Source: Escherichia phage HC12. From it: a stretch of 39,342 bases of DNA. The notes below the pieces were generated by a model. That model had not been told where the DNA came from and did not search any database. It saw only the letters and a list, made by a program, of their open reading frames with translations. Of this stretch, positions 7,772 through 35,745 are shown in pieces. Numbering within the stretch: position 1 is the stretch's first letter; each line of letters starts with the position of its first letter. The position numbers and the translations under genes were made by a program. The stretch is taken from the sequence record OL362275.1; one strand, given 5' to 3'.

Positions 7772-7854
7772 CTAAATGTCAACCCAGTGGTCTTCGGACT
7801 GCTGGGTTTCTTTGCTTTGTGCTAGAAAGCTATCGTCTGGGCCACCAGCATGAC

Positions 7855-7877
7855 ACTAAGCTATCACTATAGGAAAA
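7855..7877 (+). promoter_or_regulatory. Phage RNA polymerase promoter
   Basis: CACTAAGCTATCACTATAGGAAA, +1 G at 7872. Confidence 0.65.
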
Positions 7878-7903
7878 CCATAACTCGACCTAAGGAGGCC
7901 GAT

Positions 7904-8164
7904 ATGTTTAAGAACTTAATGTTCAATCGTTATACCAGTACATTCCACCTGTCTAACAACCCGTTCGCTTGCATTAAGCGCAACGAGAAGCTGGGATACT
8001 TCGGGAAGGCCGTTAAGCTGTCACCTACAGTCTATGCTCTGATTACTCACGGCAAAGCTGAAGAGGCTCGCCAGAAGCGTGATACCGACGTACCTGTGGT
8101 ATACACCAAGTGGCCTCGCGTTCGTCTGTTTATTGAGTTCGTGAAGGAGGTGATCAATGGTTAA
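7904..8164 (+). CDS. Hypothetical protein (gene 1.6 position)
   Basis: In-frame ATG with AAGGAGG RBS downstream of the promoter; the track start at 7850 lies inside the promoter. Confidence 0.6.
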   Translation: MFKNLMFNRYTSTFHLSNNPFACIKRNEKLGYFGKAVKLSPTVYALITHGKAEEARQKRDTDVPVVYTKWPRVRLFIEFVKEVING

Positions 8165-8600
8165 GGTGGGGGATACAGTTAACTATGTTGGACCAGTTGG
8201 AGCGCACGCGGGACGCTCCTGTGGCAAGGTGATATTGGTTAAGAATGAGCATGTAGCTGTTGTTAAGTGGCCCCGTTTATCTGAACCACTCACTCACTCC
8301 ATTAGTTCCTTAAGTATTACCAAGCAGGCGCAGTCCGAGCCGACAACCATAGGTCAGGAAGATAGCGTCCGTAAGCCATCTCACTATCAGGTCTTTGACG
8401 GCGTGGAGTCCATTGAGATTATCGCTCGGTCCATGACTGTCAGTGAGTTCCGTGGCTTCTGCATGGGTAACGTCCTTAAGTATCGACTCCGGGCTGGTAA
8501 GAAGTCAGAGCTGGCGACTATGGAGAAGGACCTGAACAAAGCTGCCTTTTATCAGGAGCTGTTCGACCTACATAAAGGTAAGTGCTATGCTGCCGAGTGA
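8157..8600 (+). CDS. 1.7: gp1.7-like protein (nucleotide kinase family in T7)
   Basis: C-terminal 75 aa [73 protein letters not shown] align almost residue-for-residue with the T7 gp1.7 C-terminus. N-terminal half is different and shorter than in T7. Confidence 0.8.
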   Translation: MVKVGDTVNYVGPVGAHAGRSCGKVILVKNEHVAVVKWPRLSEPLTHSISSLSITKQAQSEPTTIGQEDSVRKPSHYQVFDGVESIEIIARSMTVSEFRGFCMGNVLKYRLRAGKKSELATMEKDLNKAAFYQELFDLHKGKCYAAE

Positions 8601-10979: not shown

Positions 10980-10997
10980 ACTATCACCGTAGGGATG
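10975..10997 (+). promoter_or_regulatory. Phage RNA polymerase promoter, variant CACCGTAGGG core
   Basis: GCTAAACTATCACCGTAGGGATG; two core substitutions relative to the consensus. Confidence 0.55.
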
Positions 10998-11042
10998 AGA
11001 CCACGAGTCTTGTCCCTTTGTTCGCATTTGAGATTAAGAAAT

Positions 11043-11121
11043 GTCTCCATAGCTCAAACGGTAGAGCGGCGGGTCGTGATGGCCTATTGCGATTAGGGTT
11101 CGAATCCCCGTGGAGACGCCA
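11043..11121 (+). tRNA. tRNA-like element (canonical acceptor, D and T arms, encoded CCA; anticodon arm non-canonical)
   Basis: GTCTCCA...TGGAGAC perfect 7-bp acceptor stem. D arm GCTC-AAACGGTA-GAGC with G18G19. T arm with GGTTCGAATCC. Discriminator G then CCA. The 26 nt between the D and T arms do not form a clean 5-bp anticodon stem; best fold gives loop GTCGTGA (anticodon CGU, Thr) with an imperfect stem. Confidence 0.45.
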
Positions 11122-23405: not shown

Positions 23406-25763
23406 ATGCCGCTTATTACGCAAAGCATAAAAAATCTTAAGGGTGGCATTAGCCAACAGCCTGACATCCTGAGGTTCTCAGACCAAGGCGAGGCCCAAGT
23501 TAACTGCTGGTCATCCGAGAGTGATGGCCTCCAGAAGCGTCCACCTACAGTCTTCAAGAGACGTATTAACATCGACGTTGGGAGCAACCCTAAGTTCCAC
23601 CTGATTAACCGTGACGAGCATGAGCAGTATTACATCGTGTTCAACGGGTCAAACATTCAGGTAGTTGACTTGAGTGGTAATCAATACTCAGTTTCCGGTG
23701 CGGTAGATTACGTTAAGTCGTCCAACCCGCGAGATGACATCCGTGTCGTTACTGTTGCAGACTATACGTTCATCGTGAACCGTAAGGTTGTCGTTAAAGG
23801 TGGAAGCGAGAAGTCACACTCTGGTTATAACCGCAAAGCACGAGCTTTAATTAACCTGCGTGGCGGACAGTATGGTCGAACCCTTAAGGTGGGAATCAAC
23901 GGTGGCGTTAAGGTCTCGCATAAGCTACCAGCAGGTAATGATGCCGAGAATGACCCACCTAAGGTGGACGCTCAAGCCATCGGTTCAGCTCTGAGAGACC
24001 TTCTTGTTGCTGCTTACCCTACCTTCACGTTCGACCTTGGGTCTGGATTCCTGTTAATCACTGCCCCTTCAGGGACTGACATTAACTCAGTGGAGACGGA
24101 GGATGGCTATGCTAACCAGCTAATCAGCCCAGTACTCGACACGGTGCAAACAATCTCTAAGTTGCCTCTTGCAGCTCCAAATGGGTACATCATTAAGATT
24201 CAAGGTGAGACCAACAGTAGCGCCGATGAATATTACGTGATGTATGACTCCAACACTAAGACGTGGAAGGAGACAGTAGAGCCGGGAGTGGTCACTGGGT
24301 TCGATAACACCACAATGCCTCATGCTCTGGTGAGACAATCTGACGGCTCCTTTGAGTTCAAGACTCTGGACTGGTCTAATCGTGGTGCTGGTAATGATGA
24401 CACAAACCCTATGCCTAGCTTCGTGGATGCTACGATTAACGATGTGTTCTTCTACAGGAATAGGCTGGGGTTCTTGTCAGGCGAGAACGTAATCATGAGC
24501 CGTTCAGCCAGCTACTTTGCGTTCTTCCCTAAGAGTGTGGCTACACTGAGTGATGATGATCCTATTGACGTAGCTGTAAGTCATCCTAGAATCTCAATCC
24601 TTAAGTATGCCGTTCCGTTTAGCGAGCAGCTACTACTTTGGTCGGATGAGGTGCAGTTCGTGATGACAAGCTCTGGGGTCCTTACCTCGAAGTCTATCCA
24701 GCTTGATGTAGGCTCAGAGTTTGCCCTAGGTGACAATGCCAGACCGTTCGCTGTAGGACGCTCAGTCTTCTTCTCAGCACCTCGTGGGTCATTCACCAGC
24801 ATTAAGAGATACTTCGCTGTAGCAGATGTGTCTGACGTGAAGGATGCCGATGATACCACTGGACACGTACTGTCCTATATCCCTAACGGGGTGTTTGACA
24901 TTCAAGGTACAGGGACTGAGAACTACATCTGCGTCAACTCTACAGGTGCATACAACCGAATCTACATCTACAAGTTCTTGTTTAAGGACGGCGTACAGCT
25001 TCAAGCCTCTTGGTCACACTGGGAGTTCCCTAAAGATGATAAGATTCTGGCGTCTGCTTCTATTGGCTCTACCATGTTCATCGTTCGTCAGCACCAAGGC
25101 GGAGTGGACCTTGAGCACCTTAAGTTCATCAAAGAGGCGACTGACTTTCCGTCAGAGCCGTATAGACTCCACGTTGACTCCAAGGTGTCTATGGTCATCC
25201 CAATTGGCTCGTTTAATGCTGACACATATAAGACTACGGTTGACATTGGTGCTGCTTATGGTGGTAATGCCCCGTCTCCCGGTCGGTACTATCTGATTGA
25301 CAGTCAGGGTGCTTATTTGGACCTTGGGGACTTGACCAGTATCTCTACTGTGATTACCCTCAACGGCGATTGGTCAGGACGTACAGTGTTCATCGGGCGG
25401 TCCTATCTGATGTCCTACAAGTTCTCACGGTTCCTGATTAAGATTGAAGATGATAGTGGCACCCAGTCTGAAGACACTGGTCGTCTACAGCTTCGTCGGG
25501 CTTGGGTCAACTACAAGGACACTGGAGCTCTGAGACTCATTGTCAGAAACGGTGAGCGAGAGTTCGTTAACACCTTTAATGGGTACACCCTTGGTCAGCA
25601 GACCATAGGGACTACTAACATTGGTGACGGGCAGTATCGCTTCGCTATGAATGGTAACGCATTGACCACGAGTCTAACCTTAGAGTCCGACTATCCTACC
25701 CCGGTGTCCATCGTTGGGTGTGGCTGGGAGGCGTCATACGCTAAGAAAGCTCGTTCCGTCTAA
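23406..25763 (+). CDS. 12: Tail tubular protein B
   Basis: 785 aa, colinear with T7 gp12: SQSIKNLKGGISQQPDILR, INRDEHEQYY, FFYRNRLGFLSGENVI, DDDPIDVAVS, GRLQLRRAWVNY, GCGWE. Confidence 0.97.
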   Translation: MPLITQSIKNLKGGISQQPDILRFSDQGEAQVNCWSSESDGLQKRPPTVFKRRINIDVGSNPKFHLINRDEHEQYYIVFNGSNIQVVDLSGNQYSVSGAVDYVKSSNPRDDIRVVTVADYTFIVNRKVVVKGGSEKSHSGYNRKARALINLRGGQYGRTLKVGINGGVKVSHKLPAGNDAENDPPKVDAQAIGSALRDLLVAAYPTFTFDLGSGFLLITAPSGTDINSVETEDGYANQLISPVLDTVQTISKLPLAAPNGYIIKIQGETNSSADEYYVMYDSNTKTWKETVEPGVVTGFDNTTMPHALVRQSDGSFEFKTLDWSNRGAGNDDTNPMPSFVDATINDVFFYRNRLGFLSGENVIMSRSASYFAFFPKSVATLSDDDPIDVAVSHPRISILKYAVPFSEQLLLWSDEVQFVMTSSGVLTSKSIQLDVGSEFALGDNARPFAVGRSVFFSAPRGSFTSIKRYFAVADVSDVKDADDTTGHVLSYIPNGVFDIQGTGTENYICVNSTGAYNRIYIYKFLFKDGVQLQASWSHWEFPKDDKILASASIGSTMFIVRQHQGGVDLEHLKFIKEATDFPSEPYRLHVDSKVSMVIPIGSFNADTYKTTVDIGAAYGGNAPSPGRYYLIDSQGAYLDLGDLTSISTVITLNGDWSGRTVFIGRSYLMSYKFSRFLIKIEDDSGTQSEDTGRLQLRRAWVNYKDTGALRLIVRNGEREFVNTFNGYTLGQQTIGTTNIGDGQYRFAMNGNALTTSLTLESDYPTPVSIVGCGWEASYAKKARSV

Positions 25764-25787
25764 CTTATTGAAGGGCCTATAGATTTA

Positions 25788-25810
25788 CCTTAACTATCAC
25801 TATAGGGACT
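25788..25810 (+). promoter_or_regulatory. Phage RNA polymerase promoter (phi13-like) flanked by a 12-bp inverted repeat
   Basis: CCTTAACTATCACTATAGGGACT. AAGGGCCTATAG at 25771-25782 is the exact reverse complement of CTATAGGCCCTT at 25809-25820. Confidence 0.7.
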
Positions 25811-25839
25811 ATAGGCCCTTAAGGTTATAAGGAGACTTT

Positions 25840-26310
25840 ATGTATATTCGCAAGGCTACGGAACAGGATGTCCGCTACTTTCTGTGGCATCTTTCAGCAG
25901 ATGATGTTAATGAGTGCAAAGCAAACTATGGGTCAACCGTTGGTCTCTCTGAAAGACTGCTTAAGCATCTATCTCCGTCATCTGTGGTTTTAACGAATGG
26001 TGTAGGCGAAGTGTTTGCCTATGGTGGAAACCAAGGGGATAACGTATGGTTCTTGACTTCCGGTATTGTCCATAAGCTGAGACCTAAAGAGAAGCGGGAG
26101 TTTATAAAGCGTATCTCTGAGTACAGGGACTTAATGTTAGACCAATACGGGACCATCTGGAACTACGTGTGGTCAGGCAATAAGTCTCACATTAAATTCT
26201 TGAAGTTGCTTGGGGCTAAATTCCATGATGATTGGACTATAAGCCCAGTAACTGGTGATCGTTTTCAACTATTCACTATCTCTAAGGAGGACGTATGTGC
26301 GAGCCAGTAA
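25840..26310 (+). CDS. 13: Gene 13-position protein (internal virion/assembly protein by synteny)
   Basis: 156-aa ORF with AAGGAG RBS directly after the promoter and before gp14. Assignment by position only. Confidence 0.6.
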   Translation: MYIRKATEQDVRYFLWHLSADDVNECKANYGSTVGLSERLLKHLSPSSVVLTNGVGEVFAYGGNQGDNVWFLTSGIVHKLRPKEKREFIKRISEYRDLMLDQYGTIWNYVWSGNKSHIKFLKLLGAKFHDDWTISPVTGDRFQLFTISKEDVCASQ

Positions 26311-26882
26311 GTATCGGCATGGGTATCATGGCTGTAGCCGGGGCCACTATGTCCGCATCTCAACAGGCAAAGGCTGAGGGTGCTGCTATCGACGCTCAGA
26401 ACCGGCAGGCTCAGGAGATGATTAAACAGATGAACTACTCTGACGCCAACCTGAGGATGCAGGAGAGGGACCTGAAGGAGCAGCAGATGGCTGAACTGAC
26501 AGAGACCACGTTAAACGGTATCCGCAATCAGGGTATGGTCAGAGCTGCGGTAGCTGAGTCCGGTCTGGAAGGTAACTCTATGGACAGGATTGAACGTCAG
26601 GTCGAGGGAGACACAGTAAAGGAGAGAGCAGGGATTACCGAAAGCTACAACCGTGACTATGCGGCTATCTTCGGGAACCGTATCGCCAACATTGAGAACA
26701 CCAAGTCTGCTATCCGTGGTCAGGGTAAAATCATCAAGACCAGCCCACTGGCTCATGCACTTAATGTTGCTACCGCCGGGATGCAAGGTTACGCCGCTGG
26801 TAAGTCAATCTCTGGAGCGTCCAGCTCTGGCGGTGCTGCACCAATTAGTGCTGCTAAAGGTACACCTACAGGTCATAGCTAA
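26295..26882 (+). CDS. 14: Internal virion protein B
   Basis: 195 aa; starts MC..., Gln/Ala-rich, EGNSMDRIER aligns with T7 gp14 (EGSSMDRIKR), C-terminal AAKGT.TG. Confidence 0.85.
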   Translation: MCEPVSIGMGIMAVAGATMSASQQAKAEGAAIDAQNRQAQEMIKQMNYSDANLRMQERDLKEQQMAELTETTLNGIRNQGMVRAAVAESGLEGNSMDRIERQVEGDTVKERAGITESYNRDYAAIFGNRIANIENTKSAIRGQGKIIKTSPLAHALNVATAGMQGYAAGKSISGASSSGGAAPISAAKGTPTGHS

Positions 26883-26893
26883 GAGGAGGACTA

Positions 26894-29176
26894 ATGGCTA
26901 GTAATATTGAATCAGCTCTGGCTAATCGGACTATGGGTCGTGGCAGAGCGCCTGGTAAAACTATCGCCGTCAACTATCAAGCAGCCAGCGTTCAGGCTCC
27001 AACTGGCGACTCCGGTCTGGCTCGTGCGTTAACCAACTTCGTTGAGTCTGGGACAGGATTGTACAAGCAGTTCAAGGACGATGAGAAGACCAGAGCTGAC
27101 GAGCGGTCTAACGAGATTATCCGTAAGCTGACACCCCAGCAAAGACGTGAGGCTATCCAGAACGGCACATTGCTGTATCAGGATGACCCTTACGCTATGG
27201 AAGCACTTCGAGTCAAGACTGGTCGTAATGCTGCCTTTGCTGTAGACGACGAGATTAACGTTAAGATTCAGAACGGTGAGTTCCGTACACGTCAGGACAT
27301 GGAAGAGTATCGTCACCAGCGACTTCAGGACGCCGCTAAGTCATATGCTGAAGAGGCGGGTATTAACCCTACAGACGAGTTCTTCCAGCGTGGGTTCAAC
27401 GATAACATCACAGACCGCAACATCGCTATCTATGGGTCTTTCAATAAGTATTTCAGCAAGCAGTCTGAAGAGACAGCAATGTTGAACACCCGTATTGAGA
27501 TGAACTCATTCCTGAACGATGGCGACCTGATGCGTTCACCTGAGTCTGGCAAGACCTTCATGGCCTACCTTCGGGATGGACTAACGACTGCTGCTATCCC
27601 CTCGGACCAGCGAGCGCGGGAGGTCATTGCCCAGACGGTCCGTGACGCAATCCAGAAGTCAGGCGGCTCAAACTTCCTACAGCAAGTACGAGGCGAGCGA
27701 ATCACCCTTAACGGCGTGGATGCTACAGTCGAAGAGATTGTAGGACCTGATGTCTTCAACGCTGCTATTGTTGAGGCACAAGGAACTGAGTACAAGCTGG
27801 TGGCTAAGTATCAGGAAGACTTAGCGTTAGGCGTGCAGTCTGCGATTCTTCAGGACGACCCAACCATCGGTCTGGCCCAGATTCAAAAACTCAAGGAGCA
27901 GAACAACCTGCTTCAACCGGGTGAAGAACTCACACCTCAGCGTCAGATGCTTATTAATGCCGAAGCCAGCTTACTGGAAGCGGTAAAGCGTAAGTCTGCT
28001 GAACAGGCGAAGGAGAACACGAAGTTAATCCAGACCCAGAACAAGCAACTGGTCATTGACCAAGTGTATCAGCGACGTCTGGCTGGAGACAACGTGTCCA
28101 CCAACTATGAGGACCTTCCGGTCTCTGAAGCCACAGGAGAGTTCAAGCGTTCAGACATGAACAACTATGCGTCTTCTAAGCTACAGCAGATTGACCAGAT
28201 GGACATCCCTGAGGCTGCTAAGGACGCACAGAAGGTTGCATTATTAAGAGCTGACACTAACAACGGTCCGTTCCGTAATGCCTTTCAAACGCTTACTCAG
28301 GACGCTGCTGGTGAGTGGCAAGCTGCGGTCATCCGTGGGCAGTACGACCCAGACAAGCTGCAACGCTTCGAATCTCTTCGTCGTGCCTACACTCAGGACC
28401 CTTCAAGTTTCGCTGCTCTGTATCCTGACCAAGCTCAGTTGTTCTCTACGTTCGACCAGATGGACAAGATGGGTCTGGACCCTCAGACGATGATTGAAGC
28501 TGATAAGCAAGCTGCAAGTCAAAGCCGTGAGATGCGCATGGAGTCAGACAAGGCGTGGCAGGAGTTGAAGAACGACTCTCGGAATAAGGACCTTTCGCGT
28601 CTTCCTACGTCTCTAGACTCAAGTGCTCGTAAGGTCTGGGACTCATGGTACTATCGTACAGGTAACGCTGACGCTGCAACGCAGCAGACTCAACGCTGGC
28701 TGAATGAGAACACCGTAACGTTCCAGTCTGAAGGTTCTGACGGTAAGTCCATCGGCATGGTGTCCAAACACCAGCTTATGGTCGGGGATAACCCAGAGTC
28801 GTGGCAGGTGGGTCGAGACATTATCGACACCGCTCGTAAGCAGCTCATTAAGGCCAACCCTTGGGTAGTGAACTCTCAGTTGTCCGTTGTTGAACAGAAC
28901 GGCTCTATCTTCCTCCAAGACGCTACGGGGACTATTCGTATTCGATACGATAAAGAACTTGTAGGTAAACTCTACCGCGAACAACAGCAGAAGGTACAAG
29001 ATGCCGCATATGCTCAGGCAGAACGTGACGCTAACAAGCGAGCGCGTATCGTCGGGACTAAAGCTGCTGGTGACAAACGTCGAGCTGACCGAGAGGCCAA
29101 CATCGAGAAGCGCGGTGGGATGTACAATGATGTCTCACTGGAGGGTATCGCAAACACCTTAATCGGTAAGGAGTAA
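26894..29176 (+). CDS. 15: Internal virion protein C
   Basis: 760-aa ORF between gp14 and gp16, size and position as T7 gp15. RBS GAGGAGG. Confidence 0.85.
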   Translation: MASNIESALANRTMGRGRAPGKTIAVNYQAASVQAPTGDSGLARALTNFVESGTGLYKQFKDDEKTRADERSNEIIRKLTPQQRREAIQNGTLLYQDDPYAMEALRVKTGRNAAFAVDDEINVKIQNGEFRTRQDMEEYRHQRLQDAAKSYAEEAGINPTDEFFQRGFNDNITDRNIAIYGSFNKYFSKQSEETAMLNTRIEMNSFLNDGDLMRSPESGKTFMAYLRDGLTTAAIPSDQRAREVIAQTVRDAIQKSGGSNFLQQVRGERITLNGVDATVEEIVGPDVFNAAIVEAQGTEYKLVAKYQEDLALGVQSAILQDDPTIGLAQIQKLKEQNNLLQPGEELTPQRQMLINAEASLLEAVKRKSAEQAKENTKLIQTQNKQLVIDQVYQRRLAGDNVSTNYEDLPVSEATGEFKRSDMNNYASSKLQQIDQMDIPEAAKDAQKVALLRADTNNGPFRNAFQTLTQDAAGEWQAAVIRGQYDPDKLQRFESLRRAYTQDPSSFAALYPDQAQLFSTFDQMDKMGLDPQTMIEADKQAASQSREMRMESDKAWQELKNDSRNKDLSRLPTSLDSSARKVWDSWYYRTGNADAATQQTQRWLNENTVTFQSEGSDGKSIGMVSKHQLMVGDNPESWQVGRDIIDTARKQLIKANPWVVNSQLSVVEQNGSIFLQDATGTIRIRYDKELVGKLYREQQQKVQDAAYAQAERDANKRARIVGTKAAGDKRRADREANIEKRGGMYNDVSLEGIANTLIGKE

Positions 29177-29181
29177 TAATA

Positions 29182-29631
29182 ATGAAGAACGGGACAGCCA
29201 GTGAGAGACTGGCAGAACTGTCAGTAGCTGAAGAGTCTGGCTGTATCCGATTCACAGGCCACTTAGACGGAGAAGGATACGGAAGGATAATGGTCAACAG
29301 GGTCAAATACAGAGCGCATAGACTTGCTTACGAGCTTGCTAACGGTCCTATACCCGATGGCTACGTTGTTCGCCATAAGTGCGACAACCCGTCCTGTATA
29401 AACCCAAGCCACCTTGAAGTCGGCACCCAAGCTGATAACATAAAGGATAAGGTGACTAGAGGTCGCCAAGCGTTAGGACGCTTCGTAGGATCGTCTAAGC
29501 TCACTGAGGAAAGTGTGCGTGATATAAGGTCCAGCGACCTAAAGGTTTCACTCTTGGCTGAACGCTATGGAGTGAGTACGGTTTCTATTAGAAATATCTT
29601 GAGGAGAAAGACATGGCGACACGTGGAGTAA
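29182..29631 (+). CDS. HNH homing endonuclease (free-standing), inserted between genes 15 and 16
   Basis: GYGRIMVNRVKYRAHRLAYELANGPIPDGYVVRHKCDNPSCINPSHLEVGTQADN is a classic HNH motif; C-terminal helix-turn-helix-like LAERYGVSTVSIRNILRRK. Overlaps the gene 16 start by 19 nt. Confidence 0.85.
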   Translation: MKNGTASERLAELSVAEESGCIRFTGHLDGEGYGRIMVNRVKYRAHRLAYELANGPIPDGYVVRHKCDNPSCINPSHLEVGTQADNIKDKVTRGRQALGRFVGSSKLTEESVRDIRSSDLKVSLLAERYGVSTVSIRNILRRKTWRHVE

Positions 29632-32600
29632 GGAACTCAAACCCCGGGAACCTCCGTAAGTCCAAAGACCAATGGGAAGGTGCTATAGGTGATGATGGCG
29701 AATTCGTTATCTTCGACAGTCCTGAATCTGGCGTCCGAGCCTTAGCGAAAAACCTTCAAAGCTACGGTCGCCAAGGTTATGACTCCATCGAGAAGATTAT
29801 CAACCGATGGGCACCTCCGAGCGAGAACGACACTAAGTCCTACATCGACTCAGTGGTGGCTGCGACTGGTATCCCTGCCACCCAGAGTCTCGACCTATCG
29901 GACCCTGACACCCTGTCTTCTCTGGCTCAAGCTATCAGCTTCCATGAGACAGGCTCCCGGTACGACCCTGAAGTCTATCAGAAGGGAGTCGCACGAGCAC
30001 TCAATGGCATTAGCCCAAAGACTCCACCAGTAAGCGCTAACGTATTTGACGCACTCACGGAAGGACTCAAGGCTAAACCTAAAGTAGCTCTGGGTGAGAA
30101 CCTTCCGACCGCTGCTGGTCTAAACATTGAGGGTCAAGCACCTGAATCTCCCAACGAATCGTTCGGTGAGATGTTCTATAAGTCTACTGGCGAGACCATG
30201 AAGGAACGAGAGGACCGCTCTACGTGGTTCGGTTTCGGTGAGGCTACAAAAGCTGAAGTGAAGAACTCTATGATCGGCGTGGCTATCCGCGCTGGTCAGA
30301 CCGAGGACTCACTGGATGTCATTGGCGATGTGTTCAACCCAACCCGATGGAACAACCATAAGTGGTCTCGTGAGGAGCTGGACCAGATTCGTAACGCTGG
30401 GGTTCTTCCTCAGTATTACGGAGTCATTACTGGTGGTTCTCCTCAGAACCTGACCGAGCTTATTAACTTGGCGCTTGAGAACCAGAAGTTGGATCAAGAG
30501 AAGGCCAAGGCTGGGACTGGTGCTCAGTTAGCCGCTGGTGTGATTGGCGCTGGTGTGGACCCTCTGACCTACGTCCCTATTGCTGGACAGGTTGGTAAGG
30601 GCGGTAAGCTGGTCAATAAGATGTTCACCGTGGCTGCTCAATCTGGAGCACTGGCTGGTGTGTCTGAGATGGCCCGTACCTCAGTGGCTGGTGGTGATGC
30701 TCATGTGGCTGAAGCTATCCTTGGTGGCGCTCTCTTCGGTGGTGGTATGACTGCTATCGCTGATGGACTAGGCAGAGCCTTAGGCCGAAACACTAATGAG
30801 TTTGCTGGTCCAGCTACCCGTCTGGAAGCTCGTGAGACAGCTCGCAACACTGATGGTCAGGACCTGTCTCGTCTACCTATTCAGGATGGTGAGCAGACAT
30901 TTAGTCATCAAGGAGTTAAGTTCGCTAACGTTCCAAACGAGCCGGGTAGTGTACGATTAGAAGATGGTTCAATCCTGATTGGTGAGAACCCTCTGAACCC
31001 TAAGACACGTAAGGTCTTTGACGAAGTGATTGAGCCTGAACGTGCCGCTGCGGGTGTGAACCTTGGTGGCCTGACTGAGATTGGCCTGAAGCTGCTTCGG
31101 TCTGAGAACCCTGAGATTCGTGGAGTAGCTGCTGACTTAGTGCGTTCACCGACTGGTATGCAGTCTGGGGCCTCAGGTAAAATCGGGACCACTGCGTCAG
31201 ACGTATTCGAGAGACTTCGTGCTGTGGACCATCGGTTCTACAACGACATCGACGAAGCGGTTACTGAGGCGCTCAAGGACCCATACTTCCAGACAGCATT
31301 CTGGCGAGACTCTGGCGCATTCCGTCAGGACATCTACCAGCGTGTGTCTATGGCTATTGAAGACGGAAGTGGGAACCTGAAGGCTGAACTGACTCCGGGA
31401 GAACTGAAAGTCTATGACCTGCTGAAGAACCAGTTTGACGCCAAGCGTGAGATGATGGAGAACCCGGCGATGTTTGGTCGTCCAGACGCTCAGTCTATCT
31501 TTCCGGGCAGCCGCTTCAAGGGAACCTACGTCCCGCATGTGTATAGCAACCAGATGAAGAAGCTGTACATCAAGGAGCTTGGGAGTCCAGAGGCGTTGCA
31601 GGAGGCCATCAAGAAGTCATGGTTGACCAGCTATGCGTCTCGACCTGAAGTCAAGAAACGCGTGGACGAGGCACTCTTAGAGGCTGACCCTACGTTGACT
31701 CCAGAAGGACTTGCGGCTGCGGTCGATAAGTACGCCAACGATAAGGCTTATGGTATCTCTCACACCGAGCAGTTCGAGCGTTCATCCGTAATGGAAGAGA
31801 ACATCAATGGTCTGGTAGGTCTGGAGAACAACAGCTTCCTTGAGGCTCGTAACCTGTTCGATAGCGATATGTCAATCGTCCTACCTAACGGTCAGACCTT
31901 CAGTGTCAACAACCTGCGTGAGTGGGACATGGACAAGATTGTCCCGGCCTACAACCGTCGAGTTAATGGCGATATTGCTATCATGGCTGGTACAGGCAAG
32001 ACCACGAAGGACATGAAGGACTTGGTTGAGACCCTGATGAACAAGGCTGGGGATGACGGTAAGTTGAAAGGTGAAGTATCTACCTTACGTGACACTTTGA
32101 AGATTCTAACTGGTCGTGCTCGACGTGATGGTGCTGATGATGCGGCCTTCGCTACCGTGATGCGCACAATGACAGACCTATCGTTCTTCGCTAAGAATGC
32201 CTACATGGGTGTTCAGAACTTAACGGAGATTGGTGGTATGCTGGCTCGTGGTAACGTTCGTGCAATGCTTCATGGAGTCCCAATTTTCCGTGACCTAGCC
32301 TTCCGTAACAAGAAGGTTGGGGCCTCAGAGATTAAGGACCTGCACAATGTTATCTTCGGTAAGGAACTGGATGACTCAATCCGTCCGTCTAAACAGGATG
32401 TCATTGACCGTCTGCGATCTTACAGTGACCTAGGTCGTGGTACAGCTACAGCTCTGGGGACTGCCAAGTATTACACTGGCGAACTTGCAGTACGCTCTCC
32501 GTTCACTAAAGTCCTCAACGGTACGACCAACTACCTGTTAGATGCTGGACGTCAGGGCTTCCTGTCTGACATCGTGGAGCATAGCCTGACTGGTAGTAAG

Positions 32601-33500
32601 CGTAAGTTCGATGACCGCTGGCTGAAGACCGCTGGTATCTCTGACGAGCAGTGGAAGGGCATTAAGTCCCTAATCCGTGAGTCAGTGACTCGTGGTCCAG
32701 ACGGGAAGTACACCATCAAGGATAAGAAGGCGTTCAGTCAGGACCCAAGGGCTATGGACCTCTGGCGTATGGGTGACACCATCGCTGATGAGACCCTGCT
32801 CCGTCCCCACAAGCTGAGCAACATGGACGCCAAGGCTTATGGTCCGATAGCGAAGACTGTCTTGCAGTTTAAGAACTTCGTTATCAAGTCTATCAACGGT
32901 CGAACCATGCGTACCTTCTACAATGCCACCAAGAACAACCGAGCTATGGACGCTGCGCTGTCAACGGTTATGTCTATGGGTCTGGCTGGAATGTACTACA
33001 TGGCTCAGGCGCACATAAAGGCTTACGCTATGCAGGACGGGCGTGACCAAGAGTATCTGAAGCAAGCCCTTAACCCAACAATGATTGGCTATGCGGCGCT
33101 GTCCCGTAGCTCCCACTTAGGTGGTCCTCTTGGGGTCGCCAACATTCTGGGTGGAATCGCTGGGTATGAGGACACTAAGATGCTCCGCTCGTCAATCCTT
33201 CCGCGCTCACCTACCGAGAAGACGGAGAAGCCAATCGCCTTTGGTGCTGCTTCCAGTGGTCCGGTAATGAATGTGGTCGGCAACTTCCTTGAGCAGGTCC
33301 CGGCTTTCGGCTATGCTGCTAACGTTGGTGCTACGGCTTACAACTTGGCGGGATACCTCAAGGCTGATACCCGTGTCAACGAGCGAGACTACATGACCGG
33401 GATGTATAACACGTTCCGTGAACTTGTACCGAATGACCCGATTACCCAGAAGTTGCTGCTTGGAACGTTTGAGGAGCAGGGCATCCACATCAAGGACTAA
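29613..33500 (+). CDS. 16: Internal virion protein D (ejection protein), N-terminal domain unlike the T7 transglycosylase domain
   Basis: 1295 aa. From about residue 230 colinear with T7 gp16 (TRWN..W..EEL..IRN, SPTGMQSGASGK, YGISHTEQFE, NSFLEARNLFDSD, FFAKNAYMG, DPTMIGYAALSRSS, KELVPNDP). N-terminal 130 aa (NSNPGNLRK...RWAPPSENDT) is different. Confidence 0.93.
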   Translation: MATRGVRNSNPGNLRKSKDQWEGAIGDDGEFVIFDSPESGVRALAKNLQSYGRQGYDSIEKIINRWAPPSENDTKSYIDSVVAATGIPATQSLDLSDPDTLSSLAQAISFHETGSRYDPEVYQKGVARALNGISPKTPPVSANVFDALTEGLKAKPKVALGENLPTAAGLNIEGQAPESPNESFGEMFYKSTGETMKEREDRSTWFGFGEATKAEVKNSMIGVAIRAGQTEDSLDVIGDVFNPTRWNNHKWSREELDQIRNAGVLPQYYGVITGGSPQNLTELINLALENQKLDQEKAKAGTGAQLAAGVIGAGVDPLTYVPIAGQVGKGGKLVNKMFTVAAQSGALAGVSEMARTSVAGGDAHVAEAILGGALFGGGMTAIADGLGRALGRNTNEFAGPATRLEARETARNTDGQDLSRLPIQDGEQTFSHQGVKFANVPNEPGSVRLEDGSILIGENPLNPKTRKVFDEVIEPERAAAGVNLGGLTEIGLKLLRSENPEIRGVAADLVRSPTGMQSGASGKIGTTASDVFERLRAVDHRFYNDIDEAVTEALKDPYFQTAFWRDSGAFRQDIYQRVSMAIEDGSGNLKAELTPGELKVYDLLKNQFDAKREMMENPAMFGRPDAQSIFPGSRFKGTYVPHVYSNQMKKLYIKELGSPEALQEAIKKSWLTSYASRPEVKKRVDEALLEADPTLTPEGLAAAVDKYANDKAYGISHTEQFERSSVMEENINGLVGLENNSFLEARNLFDSDMSIVLPNGQTFSVNNLREWDMDKIVPAYNRRVNGDIAIMAGTGKTTKDMKDLVETLMNKAGDDGKLKGEVSTLRDTLKILTGRARRDGADDAAFATVMRTMTDLSFFAKNAYMGVQNLTEIGGMLARGNVRAMLHGVPIFRDLAFRNKKVGASEIKDLHNVIFGKELDDSIRPSKQDVIDRLRSYSDLGRGTATALGTAKYYTGELAVRSPFTKVLNGTTNYLLDAGRQGFLSDIVEHSLTGSKRKFDDRWLKTAGISDEQWKGIKSLIRESVTRGPDGKYTIKDKKAFSQDPRAMDLWRMGDTIADETLLRPHKLSNMDAKAYGPIAKTVLQFKNFVIKSINGRTMRTFYNATKNNRAMDAALSTVMSMGLAGMYYMAQAHIKAYAMQDGRDQEYLKQALNPTMIGYAALSRSSHLGGPLGVANILGGIAGYEDTKMLRSSILPRSPTEKTEKPIAFGAASSGPVMNVVGNFLEQVPAFGYAANVGATAYNLAGYLKADTRVNERDYMTGMYNTFRELVPNDPITQKLLLGTFEEQGIHIKD

Positions 33501-33518
33501 ACTATCACTATAGGAAAC
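33496..33518 (+). promoter_or_regulatory. Phage RNA polymerase promoter (phi17-like)
   Basis: ACTAAACTATCACTATAGGAAAC, overlapping the gene 16 stop. Confidence 0.7.
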
Positions 33519-33564
33519 TGGAGGCGCTACCATAGGTCTCCGTTTAAATCACAAAGGAGGCATA

Positions 33565-35745
33565 ATGTCCACGATTACACAATTCCCTTCAGGAAACACT
33601 CAGTACAGGATAGAGTTCGACTACCTAGCCAGAACGTTTGTTGTTGTTACGCTGGTGAATAGCTCTAACCCTACCCTGAACCGTGTACTGGAAGTTGGTA
33701 GAGATTACCGATTCCTTAATCCAACGATGATTGAGATGTTGGCTGACCAATCAGGTTTCGACATCGTTCGTATTCACCGTCAGACTGGAACTGACTTAGT
33801 GGTAGACTTCAGGAATGGCTCAGTGTTGACGGCTAGTGACCTGACCAATTCAGAGCTTCAGGCTATCCATATTGCAGAAGAAGGTCGAGACCAAACGGTT
33901 GACTTAGCGAAGGAATATGCCGATGCTGCTGGTAGCTCTGCTGGCAACGCTAAGGATAGCGAGGACGAAGCACGACGAATGGCGGCGAGTATCAAGGAAT
34001 TTGGTAAAATTGGCTATATTACCCGTCGCTCCTTCGAGAAAGGCTTCAACGTTACAACATGGAACGAGGTCCTGCTATGGGAAGAGGATGGTGCTTATTA
34101 CCGCTGGGATGGTACGCTTCCAAAGAACGTTCCCGCTGGTTCAACTCCTGAATCATCTGGTGGTATTGGGCTGAGTGCGTGGGTTAGTGTTGGTGATGCG
34201 TCACTTAGAGCAAACCTGTCTGATAGTGATGGCGCTAAATACATAGGCAGTGGAGAAAGGACATTACTTGAGCACAACAATGATGTTTTGCACTCAAAAG
34301 ACTTCCCAACACTGCAGGCAGCTATAGATGCATCTTTGCAAAAAAATGATCTACTGGTGTCTCCTGGAAATTATACTGAAAAAGTTACTATTGGAAACGC
34401 GCAGTTAAAAGGTGTTGGCGGGGCCACGGTACTAAAAACTCCGGCAGACTTTACAAACACTGTTCAGGTTAATTTAGCTACACCTAATTGGCAATTCCGC
34501 CATAGTGGTGGTTTTGCTATAGATGGTTCCGGGACAACCGGGGCCGTAGGTATTAGTTTTGACCCGTCAGACCAATATTCCGGACGTCATAATTTTAGTG
34601 ATGTATACATCCACAACATCAACAAGGCCATTCAGAAGCCTTCCGGGAACATCGGCAATACTTGGAGAAATATTGGGATATCTACGTGTGATTGGGGGTA
34701 TTACGCGATTAGTGGCTCAGAGATGCATTGCGGGGCCGATACCCTCTACAATATCCACTTCGATGGCATCTCCACCTATGCAGTCTATCTAGACGGCACT
34801 GTCGATAATGGCGGGGTGGGCGCATGGTGGCTTAAAGACTCCATTATTGAGGCTTCCGGAGGTGGCGGGATATACTTAAAAAGTAAATCGGGCGACTGTC
34901 CTACATCTCCATGCGGGGTATCCAATATATGGATGGAAGCGATCGCAACATCACCGGCTGTTCAGGTAGACGGCGTGGCGCAAAAACCGCGAGTTCTCAA
35001 GTTGGTAGACACAGCGATATTCTTTGCTGAGTATTCTTATCTCAACAACATCGAGCTATCCAACTCCAACTTAGTAACTTATGGTTGCCGTTTTGACAAC
35101 GCTGATGGTAATCAGGATATTGTCGTGGATGCACAAAGTACCATTGTAGCCCATGACGTGTATTTAAACGGCAGTTCTGGAAAGGACGTTATTGTGGAGT
35201 CCGTCGCATCGCAATCTGCAACTATAGCTACCACAAACTTATCTCTGAGGGGCAACTTAACAAGAGGGAGAGTATTTAATACGCCGACAGGGAATAAATT
35301 AATGGCTATCACATTTGACTCAGGTAGCCATAAGTTTTCTGGCAGCGGCACCGTTAACGGTTCGACTGTATCTGACGGACTTCACGCCGCTACATGTACC
35401 GAATTTTCATTCCCCGGAGCCGGTTTATATGAAATGGTAGCGACAAGAACAACCATTACATCCGGTAGATGGTACGTGTGGGGAGTTAACTCACGCCTAC
35501 AATCTGGCTCGGCGGATATTAGTATAACGTCAGGTATTACCATGGGTAGTGTTTACACAAAGCCGGGGGAGTGGATTAGCACTTTCGGTGTAGGAAAGGC
35601 ATCTACCACTGGCACTGTAGCGCTATACGTTTCCACAGGAGGAGGTTCGGGAGCTACGGTCAGATTCAGTGACTTTTTCATCGCTGAGTTTACGACGCAA
35701 GCTCAGGCTTTAGCTTTCGCCAATTCAAGGATGTCGTTATCATAA
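33565..35745 (+). CDS. 17: Tail fibre / tailspike: conserved T7-type N-terminal adapter, divergent C-terminal receptor-binding domain
   Basis: N-terminal 150 aa (FDYLARTFVVVTL, DYRF, LVVDFRNGSVLTASDL, IHIAEEGRD) align with T7 gp17. Remainder unrelated to T7, Gly/Ser/Thr/Asn-rich with repetitive beta-strand-like segments. DNA becomes AT-rich from about 34200. Confidence 0.9.
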   Translation: MSTITQFPSGNTQYRIEFDYLARTFVVVTLVNSSNPTLNRVLEVGRDYRFLNPTMIEMLADQSGFDIVRIHRQTGTDLVVDFRNGSVLTASDLTNSELQAIHIAEEGRDQTVDLAKEYADAAGSSAGNAKDSEDEARRMAASIKEFGKIGYITRRSFEKGFNVTTWNEVLLWEEDGAYYRWDGTLPKNVPAGSTPESSGGIGLSAWVSVGDASLRANLSDSDGAKYIGSGERTLLEHNNDVLHSKDFPTLQAAIDASLQKNDLLVSPGNYTEKVTIGNAQLKGVGGATVLKTPADFTNTVQVNLATPNWQFRHSGGFAIDGSGTTGAVGISFDPSDQYSGRHNFSDVYIHNINKAIQKPSGNIGNTWRNIGISTCDWGYYAISGSEMHCGADTLYNIHFDGISTYAVYLDGTVDNGGVGAWWLKDSIIEASGGGGIYLKSKSGDCPTSPCGVSNIWMEAIATSPAVQVDGVAQKPRVLKLVDTAIFFAEYSYLNNIELSNSNLVTYGCRFDNADGNQDIVVDAQSTIVAHDVYLNGSSGKDVIVESVASQSATIATTNLSLRGNLTRGRVFNTPTGNKLMAITFDSGSHKFSGSGTVNGSTVSDGLHAATCTEFSFPGAGLYEMVATRTTITSGRWYVWGVNSRLQSGSADISITSGITMGSVYTKPGEWISTFGVGKASTTGTVALYVSTGGGSGATVRFSDFFIAEFTTQAQALAFANSRMSLS

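Follow-up and report, generated by a model that had tools for sequence, protein, structure and literature searches.

Gene content and layout of the gene 15/16 junction

The window, by which we mean the whole stretch of DNA analysed here (39,342 nt, from Escherichia phage HC12), is a complete T7-like genome of Kayfunavirus (K1F group, Studiervirinae). The record closest to its first 25 kb is that of Escherichia phage 6925, with 97.5% identity, followed by HC13 and LM33_P1, and a whole-genome BLAST shows the window and 6925 to be collinear from end to end. Between the internal virion protein genes 15 and 16 the window carries a short open reading frame for an HNH protein (Table 1). A sequence-only reading of this DNA had placed the gene there and had described a 19-nt overlap with the start of gene 16. 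Both statements are borne out by the gene boundaries, and the HNH stop codon TAA arises within codons 6-7 of gene 16 (GTA AGG). The gene has its own reading frame and is free-standing, outside any intron or intein.

Table 1. Features at and around the gene 15/16 junction (positions in the window)
Feature	Position	Strand	Basis
Gene 15, internal virion protein C, upstream neighbour	26894..29176	+	PHROG_1339; annotation of relatives
Foreign (co-conversion-like) tract around the HNH gene, 2.26 kb, relative to 6925	28814..31076	+	mismatch density
AAGGAG ribosome-binding site inside the end of gene 15	29168..29173	+	sequence, junction alignment
HNH open reading frame, free-standing, ATG start, 149 aa, equivalent to CR44b gene 7.7C	29182..29631	+	ORF, Pfam, PHROG, AF2
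Predicted conserved RNA stem-loop, arms 29187-29201 / 29237-29253	29187..29253	+	consensus fold
HNH catalytic core, aa 43-86 (H46, H65, C67, D68, N69, C72, N74, H77, N86)	29308..29439	+	Pfam
Predicted C-terminal three-helix (HTH-like) DNA-binding module, aa ~106-140	29497..29601	+	AF2, CR44b annotation
GAGGAG ribosome-binding site for gene 16, inside the HNH 3' end	29601..29606	+	sequence
Gene 16, downstream neighbour, internal virion protein D whose N-terminal domain is non-SLT and endolysin-like	29613..33500	+	PHROG_342 (internal virion protein with endolysin domain)
19-nt overlap of the HNH 3' end and the gene 16 start	29613..29631	+	sequence
Hyper-divergent patch, gene 16 codons 8-26, candidate recognition/immunity region	29632..29690	+	comparison with 6925

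In the HNH-less relatives 6925, IME177, LM33_P1 and SH3 the junction reads ...GGTAAGGAGTAA-CATA-ATGGCGAC..., and the sequence ...GGTAAGGAGTAACATAATGGCGACTCGTGGTATTCGCAATAACAATCCGGGTAACATCCGGGTAAGTAAGGACC... is contained in the junction of 6925 or LM33_P1. Only 4-5 nt separate the gene 15 stop from the gene 16 ATG in HNH-less phages, and it is exactly between this stop and this ATG that the window has its 431 extra nucleotides. The junction alignment furthermore indicates that the AAGGAG motif serves the HNH gene in the window and gene 16 in the HNH-less phages. The GAGGAG motif is kept in all alleles found at the 15/16 slot, the truncated ones included. At the very end of gene 15 (29155-29173) we also observe a ACACCTTA variant that is common to the window, HC13 and Pipis. 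It changes the end of the gene 15 protein, which reads IANTLIGKE and not IANVLIGKE, and it can pair with the TAAGG of the HNH ribosome-binding site, although this may be chance.

The core of the phage promoter, AACTATCACTATAGG, occurs in 11 copies in the window. The copies nearest to the HNH region precede gene 13 (25792) and gene 17 (33500), and the core scan of the window detects none between them. In a scan for sigma-70 promoters and terminators, nothing exceeded the shuffled expectation. With neither a promoter nor a terminator of its own, the element is inferred to be expressed within the late 13-16 transcript. No Rfam family was found in 28800-30000, and a tblastn search of the window for paralogues of the HNH protein returned only the HNH gene itself.

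Domain composition and predicted fold of the HNH protein

An HNH motif and a C-terminal helix-turn-helix had both been claimed for this protein. The motif sequence quoted at the time, RHKCDNPSCINPSHLEVGTQADN, is present in the reading frame, and the protein matches the Pfam family HNH_3 (PF13392) over residues 43-86 with an E-value of 2e-17 and 63 bits (cut-off 24.8). There is also a weak Pfam match to zf-His_Me_endon and a match to PHROG_59 'HNH endonuclease' (E=1e-37). Across 70 aligned homologues the residues R47, H65, C67, D68, C72, H77, G81 and N86 are invariant, and H46 and N69 are near-invariant. At the 15/16 slot, H46, H65, C67, D68, N69, C72, H77 and N86 are invariant in 11 of 11 alleles and N74 is found in 10 of the 11.

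The AF2 model, built on the alignment of the 70 homologues, has a mean pLDDT of 91.7. It has a beta-rich N-terminal part and a beta-beta-alpha core of two strands (62-65 and 78-81) and the helix that follows them (83-92). The helix-turn-helix is supported by three further helices at residues 109-117, 122-129 and 133-140, modelled with a pLDDT above 90 (~96 for the module), and by the annotation of the equivalent CR44b protein, in which a HTH is predicted at aa 106-127. A sequence search of the PDB with the HNH protein gave nothing significant, its weak match being to the HTH of MarA at E 0.5, and a fold search was therefore needed. In Foldseek against solved structures I-HmuI (1U3E) is the top match (E 6e-4, probability 1.00, 145 columns) and I-PpoI the second, while resolvase and Tc3 HTH-containing chains are weak, non-significant matches (E 0.6-1). 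By profile, conserved residues and the predicted beta-beta-alpha-metal fold, the protein is assigned to the HNH nucleases (His-Me finger, HNH_3). The dN/dS values between slot alleles range from 0.07 to 0.22, which indicates that the intact alleles are under purifying selection.

Distribution, alleles and decay among related phages

For a census of relatives we took the phage records matching window positions 28000-31000, about 221 in number, and searched for HNH homologues with tblastn. The records come from the INPHARED phage collection, since a scan of IMG/VR with the conserved 5' 24-mer had yielded two contigs only (39,207 and 40,470 bp). Most of the 221 matching records align as two pieces with ~430 nt skipped. 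A full-length HNH gene of 149 aa is found at the 15/16 junction in 23 of the ~221 records, which correspond to 20 phages, or ~10%. The closest genome overall, 6925 (~97%), is without it, and its alignment to the window breaks cleanly at 29184|29613; the gene is also cleanly absent from IME177, LM33_P1 and SH3. Presence of the gene is hence sporadic at one fixed site among close relatives. With some 10% of the slots occupied, the rest empty and the closest genome among the empty ones, this comparison favours mobility.

The alleles found in the slot are all exactly 450 nt long, occupy the same position and are identical at both ends. Between them they form deeply diverged groups, with 99-82% and 56-58% protein identity to the window. 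Synonymous sites are saturated between these groups, whereas the flanking virion genes are only a few percent apart. The allele of SD6 is a mosaic (locus L007, 7182-7631), in which the first ~110 nt are those of the window and the remainder is only ~70% identical, which indicates recombination breakpoints within the nuclease gene.

Several alleles are damaged. A truncated allele of 90 aa (P0051) results from a deletion of 1 nt, GATAAGGTG -> GATAA-GTG. It retains the catalytic core, has lost the HTH and leaves the gene 16 ribosome-binding site downstream intact. This allele is found in at least 24 ENA metagenome contigs, most of them ~39 kb, and at the same 15/16 slot in all three loci examined (L021, L022 and L023, 2501-2773). 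The alleles P0043-47 have frameshifted C-termini. In HC13 (L017, ~2660-2700) the site is empty with HNH-type sequence on both sides, including the TAA of the HNH stop, and MirsaeidiM_Esher6 and Esher7 are HNH-less with HNH-type sequence on the gene 16 side, the only side checked. The latter two are probably empty sites with HNH-type flanks. All three junctions look like either a precise loss between two ATGs or an ancestral empty version of the haplotype. Judged from these sequences, stages of both decay and loss of the HNH alleles appear to exist among the relatives.

A conserved RNA stem at the 5' end of the HNH gene

The consensus fold of the slot alleles predicts a stem-loop at the beginning of the HNH gene. 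Its 15-bp outer stem is predicted in 11 of 11 alleles, with variation in the apical region and at the bulged positions, and in some alleles the stem extends to the UG of the AUG. Six alleles folded as single sequences have z-scores between -3.0 and -3.9. At the DNA level, all alleles agree over the first 33 nt of the reading frame except at one position. The conservation also exceeds what is seen in the rest of the gene: where two alleles encode the same amino acid, the codon itself is the same in 73% of cases in codons 1-25 and in 34% in codons 26-143 (Fisher p 0.001-0.008 per pair). Changes in the stem arms among the 11 alleles are limited to G.U>A-U and G-C>G.U, and no double compensatory change was found in the outer stem. 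The arms otherwise keep their nucleotides even between alleles with a protein identity of only 56-58%. The homologous part in Vibrio phage 1.191.O is internal to an ORF of 226 aa and is therefore uninformative on the 5' stem.

One possible function of the stem would be to attenuate translation of the nuclease, whose gene lies in an operon transcribed at a high level. Similar control by hairpins is known for T4 I-TevI and Aeh1 mobE. A competing explanation for the conservation is that recombination starting from the conserved flank in gene 15 has homogenised this part of the alleles.

A foreign tract around the HNH gene and a divergent patch in gene 16

Outside the tract listed in Table 1 the backbone of the window is 99.4-99.6% identical to 6925, with 0.4% mismatch in 25700-28813 and 0.6% in 31077-35000. 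Within the tract, the mismatch density rises to 5.2% in 28814-29181, 31% in 29613-29690 and 10% in 29691-31076. The tract takes in ~370 nt at the end of gene 15 and ~1.46 kb at the beginning of gene 16, and this pattern suggests that the local gene 15/gene 16 allele travelled with the HNH gene. With the genomes compared here, the difference between the window and 6925 at the slot may be either a gain in the window or a loss in 6925.

The relationship to Citrobacter phage CR44b points the same way. There are 4 mismatches between the window and CR44b in 29184-29776, that is the insert and the first ~165 nt of gene 16 (99.3% identical). In 29182-29800 there are 9 mismatches in 619 positions, against 5.4-6.3% in the flanks, which are ~94% identical (Fisher p=2e-7). 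The similarity of the element is incongruent with that of its flanks, as in co-conversion, but mosaic patches are common genome-wide: 26% of the 200-nt bins between the window and 6925 are less than 97% identical. The tract by itself is for this reason no proof of an endonuclease-driven conversion.

Further patches that diverge sharply from 6925, or cannot be aligned to it, lie at window positions 7775-8360, 10980-11120 and 24200-25600. These appear to be additional mosaic exchange points, and no HNH homologue of the same family was found within the three.

The most divergent part of the tract adjoins the insert. Of the 59 nt in codons 8-26 of gene 16, 24 are different in 6925, compared to 141 of 1386 elsewhere in the tract (Fisher p=3e-9). 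Among the changes here are 3-nt synonymous swaps, for example of the Ser codons TCC and AGT, and the protein is hardly altered. Such largely protein-preserving recoding is as expected if the target site sits in this patch, which we consider a candidate for the recognition site and which would then be recoded to resistance in the carriers. Two variants of the first 120 nt of gene 16 occur across the database, one of which is linked to the presence of the HNH gene. The HNH carriers listed are mostly 80-100% identical to the window in this stretch, and ~175 records, HNH-less wherever checked, are at 60-80% (74-79% among those listed). The HNH-type variant is also found in three HNH-less records, so that it may predate the insertion rather than confer immunity.

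The N-terminal domain of gp16

In the sequence-only reading, the N-terminus of gp16 was noted to be replaced relative to T7, and it was proposed that this replacement and the HNH gene arrived together. The first part of this holds. BLASTP aligns the two proteins only from window aa 125 (T7 aa 152) onwards, with 53% identity, and T7 gp16 matches Pfam SLT in residues 15-127 whereas the first 200 aa of the window gp16 have no Pfam match. The proposed joint arrival is contradicted by the HNH-less Kayfunaviruses, which have the non-SLT N-terminus as well, and we reject it. The HNH-less relative checked was phage 6925, whose gp16 is 93% identical to that of the window over the first 200 aa. The gp16 N-terminus also matches a solved chain of 1295 aa, Gp29 (PDB 9vvp_L); wherever the window and 6925 differ, the first 150 residues of Gp29 have the HNH-less-type residues. 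The non-SLT N-terminus therefore looks like a genus-wide property and not like something brought in by the HNH gene. As a separate observation, aa 1-~125 of gp16 (29613-29990) are endolysin-like and match the PDB entry 7q47 'Endolysin' (170 aa) with an E-value of 1e-13.

Comparison with known homing systems

The closest described counterpart of the HNH gene is gene 7.7C of CR44b (CDM21574.1), annotated as a 'predicted homing endonuclease', with 99.1% nucleotide and 98.7% amino acid identity to the window. It occupies the same 15/16 slot, is likewise 450 nt long and has the same 19-nt overlap with gene 16. The backbones of the two phages differ, that of the window being closest to 6925, which is without the gene; we see no other substantive difference. 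The gene is furthermore found in the phages U8, EPr2 and 101118UKE1. The window protein is two residues apart from each of those of CR44b, U8 and EPr2 (98.7%), and near-identical copies in EPr2, U8 and others are annotated as HNH nuclease or hypothetical protein. The gene is therefore already known from CR44b, and in several Kayfunavirus genomes it carries the annotation HNH endonuclease.

CR44b has five predicted homing endonuclease genes, whereas the window has one. Two of the CR44b proteins, 7.7 and 7.7B, have 48% identity to the window HNH protein, and T7 gp7.7 has 52% identity over aa 21-148; like the window protein, these combine HNH_3 with a C-terminal HTH. The CR44b genes 7.7B and 7.7 are also free-standing, located just upstream of and overlapping an essential gene, but their insertion slots are different, namely upstream of gene 5 and gene 8, respectively. 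All 15/16-slot alleles have an N-terminal extension of 20 aa that is absent from T7 gp7.7 and from CR44b 7.7 and 7.7B, which are themselves uncharacterised HNH proteins.

I-HmuI (PDB 1U3E) of the Bacillus phage SPO1 has the same layout, with a beta region at the N-terminus, then the HNH core and a HTH at the C-terminus. It is an intron-encoded, strand-specific nicking enzyme, while the gene in the window is free-standing. The likeness between I-HmuI and our model is a fold-level match only, with 14% sequence identity and a TM-score of ~0.4.

A parallel for the genetic arrangement is given by the T4-type free-standing enzymes MobE, SegB and SegF/SegG, for which intronless homing, co-conversion of the flanks and a resistant carrier site are described (PMC2790892, PMC2330249, PMC2988022). 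The tract in the window and the site variant linked to the gene fit this pattern. There are also differences: homing has been demonstrated experimentally for the T4 enzymes and is only predicted for the window gene, the Seg enzymes are GIY-YIG proteins, and the window belongs to the T7-like and not the T4-like phages. The location of free-standing homing endonuclease genes beside essential phage genes, with recombination boundaries at these genes, has been reported before (PMC10448857, PMC2790892, PMC2330249).

Two other comparisons were discarded. The homing endonuclease gene of Hafnia phage Ca (PMC8861465) is a different one and is found at the lysis/terminase junction. A packaging role as in HNH-terminase pairs was set aside because the gene does not adjoin the terminase and because, to our knowledge, T7-like phages have no cos-type packaging.

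Discussion

We set out here what the HNH gene at the 15/16 junction most likely is and how it may have come to be there. The idea of a mobile HNH insertion into an otherwise conserved junction was part of the sequence-only reading, and the comparison with relatives argues for it, through the sporadic occupancy of the slot, the empty site in 6925 and the foreign tract that surrounds the insert. We consider it likely that the gene is a mobile free-standing homing endonuclease gene, whose predicted protein has a layout like that of I-HmuI.

In such a scenario the insert would seize the AAGGAG of gene 16 and supply the replacement GAGGAG within its own 3' end, and its transcription, like that of genes 13-16, would start at the late phage promoter at 25792. 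In a mixed infection the enzyme might nick or cut the empty 15/16 junction of an HNH-less relative, the likeliest cleavage site being in the first ~80 nt of gene 16. Recombination off the HNH-carrying genome would then repair the break and copy the HNH gene and its gene 15/16 flanks together with the cleavage-resistant site variant. Over longer times the alleles could pass through a cycle of spread, purifying selection while active, decay into truncated forms and loss. A literature search found no cleavage, target or homing assay and no cross for the HNH gene or its closest relatives.

Another reason for the presence of the nuclease could be that it is kept for the benefit of the phage, as a weapon against HNH-less co-infectors, for marker exclusion or for other DNA processing. 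The low dN/dS values would be expected from this, as would the catalytic residues that stay invariant in alleles down to 56% identity, and a competitive gain from a phage endonuclease has a precedent (PMC11620839). Yet ~90% of the related phages manage without the gene, and alleles truncated to lose the DNA-binding module are found in high-coverage complete genomes. We regard a phage benefit as the main explanation as rather unlikely; mechanistically it overlaps with homing and does not exclude it. A smaller chance still is given to an ordinary accessory gene, inserted once in an ancestor and since then subject to vertical descent, general recombination and repeated deletion, with no part played by the endonuclease in its spread. 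The shared length, position and identical ends of the alleles fit a single original insertion, mosaic patches are common (the 26% of bins against 6925), and precise empty sites of the HC13 type show that deletion is possible. Against this, the insert and ~165 nt of gene 16 are far closer to CR44b than their flanks are, the link between the HNH gene and the hyper-divergent patch adjoining it is strong across the database, and known homing enzymes belong to the same family and share the fold. That the window copy is an inactive relic heading for loss seems very improbable to us. Decayed alleles do occur in related genomes, but the window copy is full length, is only two residues away from the CR44b, U8 and EPr2 proteins (98.7%) and retains all conserved catalytic and zinc-type residues in a family under purifying selection.

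Returning to homing as the preferred reading, the deeply diverged alleles lead to a more speculative hypothesis. The 15/16 slot might be a cassette of mutually replacing HNH alleles, each accompanied by its own version of gene 16, synonymously recoded over the first ~25 codons, and with expression throttled by the stem at 29187-29253. We hold this only tentatively and would sooner doubt it than rely on it. If it is true, targets and immunity would be specific to the allele.

Free-standing homing endonuclease genes beside essential phage genes are well described, and the discovery value of one more is small. What the comparison adds is a well-defined recombinant tract, a patch in gene 16 predicted to be the target, examples of allele decay and loss, and a stem that may be regulatory. 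Together, tract and patch provide concrete predictions of the target site. The window, 6925 and CR44b furthermore form a natural trio for homing tests, as recombinant, recipient-like backbone and donor-like cassette, and our literature search found no experimental study of such homing in T7-like phages. Exchange driven by homing endonuclease genes in the ejectosome genes 15 and 16 would bear on the phylogeny of Kayfunavirus and on the engineering of therapeutic phages.
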